Virus record (IMG/VR): IMGVR_UViG_3300027608_000014
Location: 64,001-128,000 of that record
Length of the DNA stretch: 64,000 nt
Strand: one strand, 5' to 3'
Origin: a virus
In this document: positions 107 to 16,997 of the stretch, piece after piece
Position numbering within the stretch: the first letter of the stretch is position 1
How the letters are laid out: each line of letters opens with the position of its first letter
Notes under the pieces: generated by a model
Databases searched by the model: none
What the model saw: only the letters and a program-made list of their open reading frames with translations
What the model was told of the DNA's origin: nothing
Made by a program: the position numbers and the translations under genes

Positions 107-213
107 TGTCGTTAGTGCGACGTTAAACATCCCGGTGCTTGGGCACTGTTAGCTGGGTTCAATTCCTAGCGAGGTCACTAAGCCCAAGGCGTTCAATCGA
201 AAGATTGGGAATG
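107..213 (+). ncRNA. Pistol-like ribozyme variant with inserted hairpins
   Basis: P1 TGTCG/CGACG around loop TTAGTG, then TTAAA. The exact pseudoknot partner CACTAA is at 176-181, with a P3-like TCAATC-GAAA-GATTGG and GA-ATG. Two extra hairpins sit before the pseudoknot partner, so the fit is non-canonical. Confidence 0.45.
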
Positions 214-249
214 ATCCAAACAAACACAGCCCCACAAGGGGAGGCGACG

Positions 250-495
250 ATGGCCGACTCCATCGTTAGGTCAGAACGTGACCTATTCGAAGAAACCCTC
301 ACTGCAGCCCTCAAGGGCCTGCGCCTCGGCAAGATGGCAAAGGTTCAGGTAATCGAGCTCCCCGAGGAGTTTGCCCTCGTAATTGACCGGAAGCACCTGC
401 TCCGGTATCGGGGGGTGGGCCCAAAGGCCGTCGCGGAGTTTGTGGAAAACCTGAGCGAGAGATTGGATGGGTGCAAGGTGTTCTTCTCCACCTGA
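250..495 (+). CDS. Hypothetical protein
   Basis: ATG at 250 is preceded by SD-like GGGGAGG and is in frame with the ORF-track ORF 139..495. Confidence 0.6.
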   Translation: MADSIVRSERDLFEETLTAALKGLRLGKMAKVQVIELPEEFALVIDRKHLLRYRGVGPKAVAEFVENLSERLDGCKVFFST

Positions 496-520
496 CACCA
501 ACTGAAGGTTCGATCCCTTC

Positions 521-586
521 CGTCGTTCGTGCGACGTTAAACAGCATACTAGGCACGAAGCGTCCACTCACTCGAGTGGGGATATG
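521..586 (+). ncRNA. Pistol self-cleaving ribozyme
   Basis: P1 CGTCG(521-525)/CGACG(532-536); loop TTCGTG pairs perfectly with CACGAA(554-559); TTAAA linker; P2 CATA(545-548)/TATG(583-586); GCG(560-562); P3 TCCACTC/GAGTGGG; predicted scissile G581-A582. Element order and spacing match the pistol consensus. Confidence 0.85.
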
Positions 587-1630
587 ATCAAAATTATCAC
601 AGAGACGCAGGCCCTCTTAATGGTCTGCACTCCCGAAGACCGGATTAAAGGTCTTGTCGTAGTTCACAGCGGCGTGTTCCACGCCGACGATGTGTTCTTC
701 GTCGCCTTCCTCACGCTGGTCAGTCCCAGCATTCAGATCGTCCGGACTCGCAAGAGCGAGATCATTGAGGCGGCGGAGATCGTGGGCGATGTTGGTGGCA
801 TCTGCGCCATCAATCAAAACCGCTACGACCACCACCAGAAGGGTGGGGCCGGTGCGCGCCTGAACGGAGTGCCCTTTGCGAGCTTCGGCTTGATCTGGTC
901 GCACACAGGCTGGACGCTGGACCTGATCGGCACCGTGCTCAGGGGCGGCGGTCAGTACAGCGCCATCGCTCGGATAGTCGACGAGTCGCTGGTCCAGGCG
1001 ATCGACGCGTCGGACTGCGGCTTCACGTCGGCCGCCAGCGACCCTTTCGCGGATGCCACTCCGCGCTACTCGCTGAGTATGGCCATCAGCGCGTTCAATC
1101 CGGACTGGTCGGAGGACGACCAGGACTTCGACGCCGCCTTCGCCAGGGCCGTCGAATTCGCACAGATGATTCTCCGTCGAGAGATCATCAGCGCGGCGGG
1201 GCAGGTCGAAGCGACGTTGGTGGTCAAGCAGGCAATCACCGAGCAGACGGACGAGCCGGAGATCTTGATCCTCAATCGGTTCTGCCCTTGGCAGAATACG
1301 GTCCTGCGATGCGCCGACGTGGTGAAGTTCGTTGTCTTCCCTTCGGAGACTGGCGACTGGCGCGTGCAGGCAGTGCCCGTCTACTCTGGCTCGTACGAGA
1401 CCAGGATGTCCCTTCCGGCAACCTGGGCAGGCCTCCGCACGGCGAAACTCGCAGCGGCGGTTCGCGCCAGTGGCGGATCGATCGGGGACGACGAGGCGGC
1501 GTTCTGCCACGACAAGCTCTTCATCGGTGGGGCGACCACCTTTGAAGGAGCCATGCAGATGGCTCGCGCCGCCCTGCCAAAGGTTGCTGAGGTCAGCATC
1601 GATCTCACGGATCTCCGTGAGCGGGCCTAG
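584..1630 (+). CDS. MYG1 (UPF0160) family DHH-like exonuclease
   Basis: HSGVFHADD, DVGG, YDHHQ, SFGLIW, IDASD and FCH..FIGG motifs. Confidence 0.9.
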   Translation: MIKIITETQALLMVCTPEDRIKGLVVVHSGVFHADDVFFVAFLTLVSPSIQIVRTRKSEIIEAAEIVGDVGGICAINQNRYDHHQKGGAGARLNGVPFASFGLIWSHTGWTLDLIGTVLRGGGQYSAIARIVDESLVQAIDASDCGFTSAASDPFADATPRYSLSMAISAFNPDWSEDDQDFDAAFARAVEFAQMILRREIISAAGQVEATLVVKQAITEQTDEPEILILNRFCPWQNTVLRCADVVKFVVFPSETGDWRVQAVPVYSGSYETRMSLPATWAGLRTAKLAAAVRASGGSIGDDEAAFCHDKLFIGGATTFEGAMQMARAALPKVAEVSIDLTDLRERA

Positions 1631-3149: not shown

Positions 3150-3362
3150 ATATGGACGCCTCACCAAATAACAAGAAGGTCAACCGGATGACGGCCGAAG
3201 CTCTTCGGATCGCTCTCTCCGTCGCCAGTGAAACTGGCAACATCGACGAGAGAGGTCGCCCCATGTCGGCTAACGCTCGCCATCTAATGGCAGCGCTGGC
3301 GGCGAAGAGCTAAGAGGCTCTCCAACAAATATCCAGTGGGCCGGTGCGCCCACTGCACTTTC

Positions 3363-3424
3363 CGTGTAGAGCGCAGCCCTTTTAAGGCTGAGGTTGCTGG
3401 TTCAAATCCAGTCCTACGCGACTA
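3363..3424 (+). tRNA. D-arm-less tRNA-Lys(TTT)-like element or pseudo-tRNA
   Basis: Acceptor CGTGTAG/CTACGCG; anticodon arm CAGCC-CTTTTAA-GGCTG; T arm GCTGG-TTCAAAT-CCAGT; only AGCG where the D arm should be; ends ACTA. Confidence 0.55.
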
Positions 3425-7400: not shown

Positions 7401-7478
7401 CACGTAACAGCTCAACCTGGTAGAGCACCTGTATGCAGAACAGGACGTTGCTGGTTCAAATCCAGTCCTACGTGACCA
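7401..7478 (+). tRNA. Atypical tRNA-Cys(GCA)-like gene
   Basis: D arm GCTC/GAGC; anticodon arm CCTGT-ATGCAGA-ACAGG; T arm GCTGG-TTCAAAT-CCAGT; CACGTA/TACGTG acceptor; ACCA end. Deviations are C8, A32 and an extra nucleotide before the acceptor 3' strand. Confidence 0.6.
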
Positions 7479-8117: not shown

Positions 8118-8536
8118 GGGCCATAAAGGATTCGACTAATAGGTCAGATCTACAGCCACATGCAGAGGGACGACTTAGTTACCTCTTTAAACTCCTGAGA
8201 CAAAACTCAAACGCTAACGCGAATGACTCCGGCAACGGAAATGTGATCCAGGGCTACTTCGGTAGCTCTTCGGTCCGCACTCCGATGCTCGCTGCGGCCT
8301 AGTCCGCATCCGTCCTCTCTTCGACACCTGCTAAGGGAGAAGGACGACACCAGCAGGACGATGGTGGTGGATCCACTTTGGTACTGATCATACAGCAATG
8401 CTGCAGATCTGCGACTCGACCCACCTGGCAGCACATTTCCAGGGGACCTGTTAAGAGCGAATAATGAGATAAGCATGTAAACGCGGTAGAGTAAGACAGA
8501 TTAGGACCGGGCTCTCAGATGCCCGATGGTCCACCA
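8118..8536 (+). ncRNA. ssrA: tmRNA
   Basis: GGGCCAT/ATGGTCC-ACCA acceptor with G3-U70; GGATTCGAC near the 5' end; CATGC...GCATG helix; tag frame 8213-8302 ANANDSGNGNVIQGYFGSSSVRTPMLAAA*. Confidence 0.92.
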
Positions 8537-15863: not shown

Positions 15864-16997
15864 ATGAAACCAGAAAGCTTGACTCTATATTACAAAGATG
15901 GATCTTCTGATAAGGTATACTTTGCCACTCTAGAAAAACAGATGGCCGTTGGGACCCACAGTTGGGTGGTCAACTTTGCCTACGGTCGTCGCGGGTCCAC
16001 TATGACCACAGGGACAAAGACCCAGGCCCCAGTTGACTACACTGCTGCCAAGAAGATCTACGACAAGGCGATCAAAGACAAGACCGCCAAGGGGTATACA
16101 GTCGGAAAGGATGGAACTCCGTTCCAGTTCACCGACAAGGAATCCAGAGACTCCGGACTGCACCCACAGCTTCTTAACTCTATCGATGACGCCAGACTGG
16201 CTGAACTGATGAAGGACGATGAGTGGTGCATGCAGGAGAAGATGGACGGTCGTCGATGCATGATCCGAAAGACTGGTGATGTGGTTGAGGGCGTCAATCG
16301 CCTGGGCCTCACCATTGGACTGCCTCAGCCGATTGTCGATGATGCCAAGAAGATCGATCGTGACTTCGTCATTGACGGAGAAACCATTGGTGACGAATTC
16401 TATGTCTTCGACGCCATTGAGATCGATGGATTAAGTGTAAAAGACTTCCCGTACTTCTCGAGACGAACCGGACTAGGCAACCTCTTGGAGATCGACACAG
16501 AGAGTCGACTCAATCATATCATCATGGTTGAAAGCGCCACTAGCACCAAATCCAAGAAAATAATGTTTGAACTTCTCAGCAACAAGAACAAAGAGGGTGT
16601 GGTCTTTAAGCGACTGGACTCTCTGTACGTCTCTGGACGACCATCAAGTGGCGGCAACCAGCTGAAGTATAAGTTCGTTGAGGACGCCTCCTGTGTGGTG
16701 ATCAGAGTGAATGACAAGCGCAGCGTGGCGCTTGGAGTATTTGAGTCAGAGGAAGATATTCCTAAAATGAAACTCCTGGATGTGGGCAACACAACTATTC
16801 CTCCTAACCACGATATCCCCAAAGTTGGAGACGTGGTGTCAGTTAGGTATCTCTATGCCTACCGAGGCGGTAGTCTCTATCAGCCTGTTTATCAGGGAGC
16901 TAGAGACGATCAGACCATCGCTGAGTGTAGCATTAAACAACTCAAATACAGACCAGAACAACAAGAACATGTTAACCCGCTTCTGGCTAAAGATTAA
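15864..16997 (+). CDS. WGR-domain ATP-dependent DNA ligase-like protein
   Basis: N-terminal SDKVY...AYGRRG...KTAKGY (WGR); motif I QEKMDG, IDGE, YVFD, EGVVFK, KYK; OB-fold C-terminus. Confidence 0.85.
   Translation: MKPESLTLYYKDGSSDKVYFATLEKQMAVGTHSWVVNFAYGRRGSTMTTGTKTQAPVDYTAAKKIYDKAIKDKTAKGYTVGKDGTPFQFTDKESRDSGLHPQLLNSIDDARLAELMKDDEWCMQEKMDGRRCMIRKTGDVVEGVNRLGLTIGLPQPIVDDAKKIDRDFVIDGETIGDEFYVFDAIEIDGLSVKDFPYFSRRTGLGNLLEIDTESRLNHIIMVESATSTKSKKIMFELLSNKNKEGVVFKRLDSLYVSGRPSSGGNQLKYKFVEDASCVVIRVNDKRSVALGVFESEEDIPKMKLLDVGNTTIPPNHDIPKVGDVVSVRYLYAYRGGSLYQPVYQGARDDQTIAECSIKQLKYRPEQQEHVNPLLAKD

Follow-up and report, generated by a model that had tools for sequence, protein, structure and literature searches.

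A pistol ribozyme that contains the start codon of a MYG1-family gene in an uncultured phage

In a large uncultured phage, the start codon of a gene of the MYG1 exonuclease family forms part of a pistol ribozyme and sits 2 nt past the predicted self-cleavage site. The arrangement lies near the beginning of the 64,000-nt stretch that we analyzed as one window, which covers bases 64001–128000 of the 148,872-bp IMG/VR virus record IMGVR_UViG_3300027608_000014, estimated to be 75% complete. With modest confidence, we favor the reading that an active pistol splits a joint transcript of a small ORF and MYG1, and that this yields a MYG1 mRNA with a 5'-OH, a 2-nt leader and no Shine-Dalgarno (SD) sequence, which would be translated by leaderless-type initiation. 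The source is a phage of approximately 150–170 kb that encodes a class II ribonucleotide reductase (RNR), DnaE, helicases and a ligase elsewhere in the window, and all genes around the pistols described here are on the + strand. No close cultured phage was found by DNA or protein similarity, the top matches being to tRNA only and RNR reaching at most 43% identity. None of the eight local proteins, MYG1 included, fell into a PHROGs family. At 15864–16997, the window also encodes an ATP-dependent ligase (377 aa) that carries a WGR domain and shows a weak match to the RNA_ligase family as well.

Pistols are a class of self-cleaving ribozymes, reportedly described by Weinberg in 2015, and the structure of the env25 pistol is entry 5K7C. 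The Rfam Pistol model (RF02679) matches window positions 521–586 on the + strand across its full length (model positions 1–68 of 68) with 49.2 bits, against a gathering score of 34.5 bits; the E-value was 6e-6 in a search of the window and 3.3e-9 in a search of the genome. Pairing was also checked helix by helix, using a script that cuts a sequence into the segments of the Pistol model. In both the Rfam alignment and the script parse, P1 (521–525 with 532–536, CGUCG/CGACG) consists of five Watson-Crick pairs, and the loop that it closes (UUCGUG, 526–531) pairs with CACGAA (554–559) to form a pseudoknot in which all six pairs are Watson-Crick. The J1-2 linker (537–544, UUAAACAG), with an AAA triplet at 539–541, leads into the 5' strand of P2 (CAUA, 545–548), which forms four Watson-Crick pairs with the 3' strand UAUG (583–586). 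Between P2 and P3 lies the catalytic core (549–563), made up of CUAGG (its GG at 552–553), the pseudoknot strand and GCGU (560–563), while P3 itself (563–569 with 574–580, UCCACUC and GAGUGGG around the loop ACUC) has seven pairs including a U·G.

The core nucleotides fall where the family places them. In the model alignment, G552 corresponds to purine 32, G553 and C561 to the G33–C41 pair, G560 to the general base G40 and G562 to G42, all residues with described roles in the pistol core (PMC6154101, PMC7027511). A539–A541 likewise occupy the place of the conserved A19–A21 of J1-2, which make A-minor contacts (PMC6101554). Since the model score exceeds the cut-off, pairing is complete in every helix and no core nucleotide is missing, 521–586 is, as judged by its sequence, a genuine pistol with a single non-consensus nucleotide. 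An earlier note on this DNA had described a pistol with all of its elements, a perfect 6-bp pseudoknot, GA instead of the common GU at the scissile position, an AUG within P2 and a T-loop hairpin (GAAGG-UUCGAUC-CCUUC) abutting P1; the Rfam search that it had proposed as a check and our segment parse bear out each of these, and the hairpin is present at 504–520, adjoining C521. The G560A control that the same note had suggested is aimed at the right nucleotide because G560 aligns to the general base.

The one departure from the conserved positions is at the cleavage site. The scissile linker G581–A582 aligns to model positions 63–64 (G-U), so that the conserved G is present and the +1 nucleotide is A582 instead of U; the literature that we searched, which did not extend to the primary structure papers, gave no data on a U-to-A substitution here. 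Pistol cleavage, which depends on Mg2+, generates a 2',3'-cyclic phosphate and a 5'-OH (PMC4604425), and the predicted cut at this linker would leave a product ending in G581 with a 2',3'-cyclic phosphate and another beginning with 5'-HO-A582. When set against the described class (RF02679; Harris 2015, PMC4604425), the window element shares P1, the 6-bp pseudoknot, the AAA linker, P2, the GCGU core, P3 and the 2-nt scissile linker, and an association with phages is common to both. It differs in having A rather than U at +1, in the T-loop hairpin stacked on P1, and in a P2 3' strand (UAUG) that doubles as a start codon, whereas the family consensus at this place is uGcg and no coding role has been described for it.

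The gene that begins within the ribozyme (584..1630, + strand, 348 aa) encodes a full-length member of the MYG1/UPF0160 family of DHH-type exonucleases. It matches Pfam PF03690 (MYG1_exonuc) with an E-value of 3.3e-67 over profile positions 2–318 of 318, in agreement with the gene assignment in the earlier note, and the His/Asp metal-site residues H28, H33, D35, D36, D69, D82, H83, H84, D141 and D144 do not vary among 18 homologues. Because the AUG at 584–586 makes up all but the first nucleotide of the P2 3' strand, the start codon is itself a piece of the ribozyme, provided that translation does begin there. The database gene call for this sequence (P0001, 336 aa) instead begins at ATG 620, and the Pfam domain starts only at residue 25 in the numbering from ATG 584. 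Both observations would suit a reading in which MYG1 is translated from ATG 620 and cleavage merely trims the transcript to a 38-nt leader.

Comparison with relatives makes a start at 620 very unlikely. In relatives that are 54–74% identical, an N-terminus of the form MI(N/K)(I/L)I(K/T)E(T/Q/K)QAL aligns to residues 1–12 of the long form, and the pattern MIxIIxExQAL is kept in P0002–P0005 and P0007–P0009. In the DNA, variation at codons 2 and 5 is exclusively synonymous, and the variable sites number 3, 3 and 6 at the first, second and third codon positions, respectively. Codon 13, which corresponds to position 620, is TTG (Leu) in three of five relatives (L004, L007 and L010), and the sequence holds no SD ahead of ATG 620. 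Furthermore, the ribozyme-free relative P0007 (locus L009) retains the N-terminal peptide as SINIISEQAAM, so its conservation appears to be at the protein level and not an echo of the RNA. Given the conserved peptide, the synonymous changes, the TTG at codon 13 and the persistence of the peptide in a ribozyme-free relative, these comparisons identify ATG 584 as the true MYG1 start; the earlier note had chosen it and had named 620 as the alternative by which its choice could fail. A hairpin is also predicted at 604–634 (GCAGGCC...GGUCUGC), over MYG1 codons 8–17, in the window as well as in L004 and L006. It partly covers AUG 620, and the place of that AUG at the margin of a hairpin predicted to be conserved is a further point against its use as the start.

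Contigs encoding the closest MYG1 homologues were retrieved for comparison, and among them L004/L005, L006 and L007/L008 represent three further phages with the same element, which we term type A. The 66-nt ribozyme is identical letter for letter in all three, each copy ending with the last base of the start codon called for MYG1, and their MYG1 sequences are 67–74% identical to that of the window. In the four-way alignment, 499–588 is an invariant run of 90 nt that comprises the T-hairpin, the ribozyme and ATGAT, and 50–80% of the columns in the flanking coding sequence are invariant. As all type A copies are identical, they offer no covariation; support for the fold comes from the Rfam model and from a second architecture, type B, with which it can be compared. 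A type B pistol precedes MYG1 in L010 and L011, with P1 as GGGG/CCCU or GGCG/CGUC, the pseudoknot as CUUGGG/CCCAAG, an unrelated P3 and a T-arm hairpin inserted in J1-2, the linker between P1 and P2; this element, too, terminates in UAUG at the MYG1 start, and in L011 the cut site is the canonical G|U.

The covariation missing within type A is supplied by the changes between the two types: across type A and type B copies, compensatory changes affect P1, the pseudoknot and P3 alike while the core is kept, which indicates that selection acts on the pistol fold itself. Our sequence comparisons thus find the ribozyme fold, the true MYG1 start codon and the geometry that joins them conserved in two pistol architectures. 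It could still be argued that the U-to-A change at a conserved position, or some other change, has abolished cleavage, and that the 90-nt block is an inactive relic, a module junction left by recombination, or a structure bound by a protein or the ribosome. A second intergenic block (1601–1696) is likewise invariant and the MYG1 alleles look mosaic, as might be expected of recombination boundaries. Nevertheless, all catalytic nucleotides and all helices are intact in the window element, the core of the pistol is retained in the paralogous type B copies alongside compensatory change in P1, the pseudoknot and P3, and L011 has the canonical GU, and we regard a dead element as highly improbable. 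Recombination may contribute to the identity of the type A copies, since 1601–1696 is also invariant and the comparison of homologues gives MYG1 alleles a mosaic appearance. This second block, 96 nt long and conserved in the four phages as strongly as the ribozyme block, covers the MYG1 3' end, a hairpin at 1650–1669 (CCCGCCCC-GAAA-GGGGCGGG) and the start of the next ORF.

The association between pistols and MYG1 appears to be confined to these phages. A tolerant structural descriptor applied to both strands of 101 loci recovered exactly the type A and type B copies and no others. No pistol adjoins MYG1 in L009 or L092–L095 (Rfam at E up to 5, and the descriptor), none was found in 80 more distant metagenome MYG1 loci (descriptor, with six also searched by Rfam), and none in 10 MYG1 loci from IMG/VR (Rfam only). 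The 80 metagenome and 10 IMG/VR loci were found using an alignment of MYG1 as the query; a search with the single MYG1 sequence gave no viral relatives. Because about 95 other MYG1 loci have no pistol, the link between pistol and MYG1 start codon is, within this sampling of sequences, specific to one phage clade, where it occurs in two architectures. Exact and degenerate DNA patterns of the type A and type B pistols gave zero matches in IMG/VR contigs, and a degenerate pistol-core pattern run against bacterial genomes revealed no prophage host. The six bacterial matches that this pattern did return are chance matches, since none of them is a pistol.

Some features of the ribozyme-free loci are noted here in their own right. 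L092 (~267–295) and L093 (~865–896) have in common a motif, GCAATTnTTTACCTGGnnGGGTCATAAGGATTTG, upstream of MYG1, which in L093 ends 3 nt before the MYG1 ATG; this motif may be a promoter that gives a natively leaderless transcript. L009 carries, at 1–1072 and two genes upstream of MYG1, a gene for a 581-aa PolyA_pol protein of the CCA-adding enzyme family, and a gene for a CCA-adding enzyme was not found in the window's own contig (75% complete).

Upstream of the MYG1 pistol, the window holds a small ORF (250..495, + strand, 81 aa) with the SD GGGGAGG before ATG 250, a UGA stop at 493–495 and no Pfam or PHROG family; a syntenic 82-aa gene takes its place in L004, L005 and L008. The gap of 88 nt between the small ORF and MYG1 is where the type A pistol resides. 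A hairpin (470..499, + strand, GGUG..AGGUG-UUCUUCUC-CACCU..CACC) spans the stop codon of the small ORF, and its positions 476–498 are invariant in the four phages. The hairpin that abuts P1 (504..520, + strand) lies in the invariant 90-nt block and is T-arm-like, with a loop that fits the tRNA T-loop pattern. We considered whether 430–520 as a whole could be tRNA-like, with this T arm and a hairpin with an 8-nt loop in the place of the anticodon arm, and rejected the idea, as acceptor and D stems are missing and the sequence encodes part of the small ORF.

A second pistol, of type B, lies at 134..215 on the + strand. Its P1 is GGUG/CACU, its pseudoknot CUUGGG/CCCAAG and its P3 capped by GAAA, a T-arm hairpin in J1-2 (152–170) takes the place of the AAA linker, and its scissile linker is AA. 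Rfam recognizes this element only as fragments (17.9 and 11.4 bits). At its predicted cut lies AUG 211, which precedes ATG 250 by 13 codons in the same reading frame. The pistols at 134–215 and 521–586 therefore bracket the small ORF, each in a gap between co-directional + strand genes, and flank a single gene as do the ribozymes of punctuated phage operons. At 108–129, just ahead of the type B element, there is also a 22-nt copy of the type A P1 and linker with one loop base changed (UUAGUG), and this loop is complementary to CACUAA at 176–181 within the type B element. In L004 and L007, the equivalent of 108–129 is an unrelated hairpin (UGUCC-GGGA-GGACA) followed by UUAAACA, and CACUAA is kept.

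T-arm motifs are frequent in this part of the phage genome. GGTTCRANYCC occurs at seven + strand sites in the window (156, 507, 3399, 3818, 6194, 7453 and 58985) against 0.5 expected; six of the seven lie in the first 7.5 kb, and two are attached to pistols. The MYG1 pistol is surrounded by an RNA-rich run on the + strand, with the type B pistol, a tRNA-Arg, two tRNA-like genes and a tmRNA. The tRNA-like genes (3355–3412 and 7409–7466, with anticodons UUU and GCA) match the Rfam model only from position 9–10 to 63, were not called by ARAGORN and are identical in their T arm and 3' flank; in the one at 7409–7466, a 7-bp acceptor stem can form only when additional bases are tolerated at both junctions. 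The tmRNA at 8118–8536 (Rfam 66.2 bits) was not called by ARAGORN either, and the aligned sequence, read by hand, suggests that it may have an unusually long tag reading frame.

These observations can be assembled into a mechanism, under which the small ORF and MYG1 would be transcribed as one RNA and the ribozyme would fold during transcription. We infer co-transcription because a simple scan, which is a weak test, detected no + strand promoter or terminator signal between the two genes. In the uncut fold, the MYG1 AUG would be locked in the 4-bp P2, and the sole purine-rich stretch nearby, GAGUGGGG, would be locked in P3. Cleavage between G581 and A582, if it tolerates A at +1, would split the transcript, and the small-ORF mRNA would retain the folded T-hairpin together with the body of the ribozyme, a 3' cap with a terminal 2',3'-cyclic phosphate. 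The short P2 would then melt and free MYG1 mRNA as 5'-HO-AU-AUG..., a 5'-OH product with no SD that would have to be translated by leaderless-type initiation. The first ~20 nt of this product are A-rich and, according to folding prediction, unpaired or weakly paired.

The sequence around the start fits initiation of this kind. The predicted cut implies a leader of 2 nt without an SD, and no SD upstream of ATG 584 would be usable in the uncut RNA because the purine run GGGG, which has no other purine run near it, ends 2 nt ahead of the AUG, a spacing that is too short. In the phage group of L004–L011, only 12 of 46 starts assigned by the gene caller, themselves unverified, have an SD-like tetramer at −16 to −8, which suggests that SD-independent initiation is common in these phages. 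A TANNNT box at a spacing expected for leaderless transcripts is only weakly enriched (4 of the 46 starts), too little to carry weight here. The chemistry of the 5' end is harder to reconcile with translation. According to a secondary source (PMC9031893, citing Giliberti 2012 and Krishnan 2010), leaderless mRNAs in E. coli reportedly need a 5' phosphate to be translated, and their translation falls when additional nucleotides precede the start codon; this is the main objection to translation of the predicted 5'-OH, 2-nt-leader product. Neither RtcB nor an AAA_33-type kinase was found in the contig (75% complete).

Alternatively, the cut may only process a polycistronic RNA, capping or stabilizing the small-ORF message, with the overlap of AUG and ribozyme a matter of genome compaction. 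The 5'-OH, SD-less product would then be poorly translated, a potentially harmful nuclease would be kept low, and the little MYG1 protein made would come from rare uncut or misfolded transcripts. Arrays of ribozymes flanking phage genes are a known arrangement without an assigned function (PMC3088659, PMC6765202), and 5'-OH leaderless mRNA is reported as untranslated in E. coli in the same source (PMC9031893), both of which fit such a role. We retain this possibility as unlikely yet worth serious weight because of the E. coli 5'-phosphate requirement and the lack of an RtcB or AAA_33 kinase in the contig. However, mere compaction does not predict that an AUG would be placed within P2 in two independent pistol architectures, and uncut RNA would be an even worse template than the cleaved product, as its AUG is paired and no SD is usable. 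MYG1 is also under clear purifying selection and so must be expressed.

More tentatively, the arrangement may characterize a lineage of large phages, freshwater or environmental, that build pistols around start codons, with cleavage unmasking the AUG and producing an SD-free mRNA with a leader of 0–2 nt. We consider this broader proposal possible rather than probable. Two architectures would be in use, one of them an undescribed variant in which a tRNA T-loop hairpin replaces the AAA linker, and the same logic could hold for the small ORF, given that AUG 211 lies at the predicted cut of the type B element. The attached T-arm hairpins could serve to bring in tRNA-binding factors, whether for folding or for the handling of RNA ends.

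Pistols near phage genes have been known since the discovery of the class (PMC4604425) and ribozymes flanking phage genes since 2011 (Perreault 2011, PMC3088659). Clustered hammerheads in phage and prophage operons (PMC3088659) are, like the two pistols that bracket one small gene here, self-cleaving RNAs in gaps between co-directional genes, but the described ribozymes precede a leader with its own ribosome-binding site, whereas the predicted cut in the window leaves only 2 nt to the AUG. A precedent in position is the HHphage hammerhead of haloviruses HF1 and HF2, located 13 nt upstream of a start codon and with an mRNA 5' end mapped at the cut (PMC3088659); it too lies just upstream of a phage gene start, though it belongs to another ribozyme class, has an archaeal host and leaves the start codon outside the ribozyme. 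The glmS ribozyme likewise cleaves itself in a 5' UTR, just upstream of the gene it regulates, and leaves a 5'-OH product (PMC6765202). In contrast to the window pistol, which has no evident ligand site, glmS needs a metabolite cofactor, its cleavage triggers decay, and no AUG lies inside it. Ribozyme cleavage is known to enable translation in RNA viruses: 5'-UTR hammerheads of fungal and plant viruses cleave upstream of an ORF and are required for its translation initiation (PMC13725137), but these are different ribozymes in eukaryotic, cap-independent RNA viruses.

A full-text literature search gave no prior description of a start codon within a pistol, of a leaderless mRNA made by a ribozyme, or of MYG1 together with a ribozyme, and the pistol at the MYG1 start therefore appears to be a new functional arrangement of a known ribozyme class. 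Phage genomes hold hundreds of self-cleaving ribozymes between their genes, and for more than 10 years, no function has been assigned to them beyond probably processing the transcript; reviews still call their function elusive (PMC6765202). The geometry described here leaves little room, as the start codon is a ribozyme strand, the predicted cut lies 2 nt from it, cleavage would leave no ribosome-binding site and the design recurs in two architectures, and it gives phage ribozymes a concrete, testable candidate job. It also raises the question of whether 5'-OH leaderless mRNAs are translatable in some hosts, against which the E. coli data argue.

In animal mitochondria, tRNA punctuation yields leaderless mRNAs. 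There, as proposed for MYG1, RNA processing and not a promoter makes an mRNA that begins at its start codon, although RNase P and RNase Z leave a 5'-phosphate, whereas the pistol RNA would cut itself and leave a 5'-OH. If the proposed mechanism is true, the pistol would be the ribozyme counterpart of mitochondrial tRNA punctuation in this phage clade, and a compact natural part for synthetic biology.
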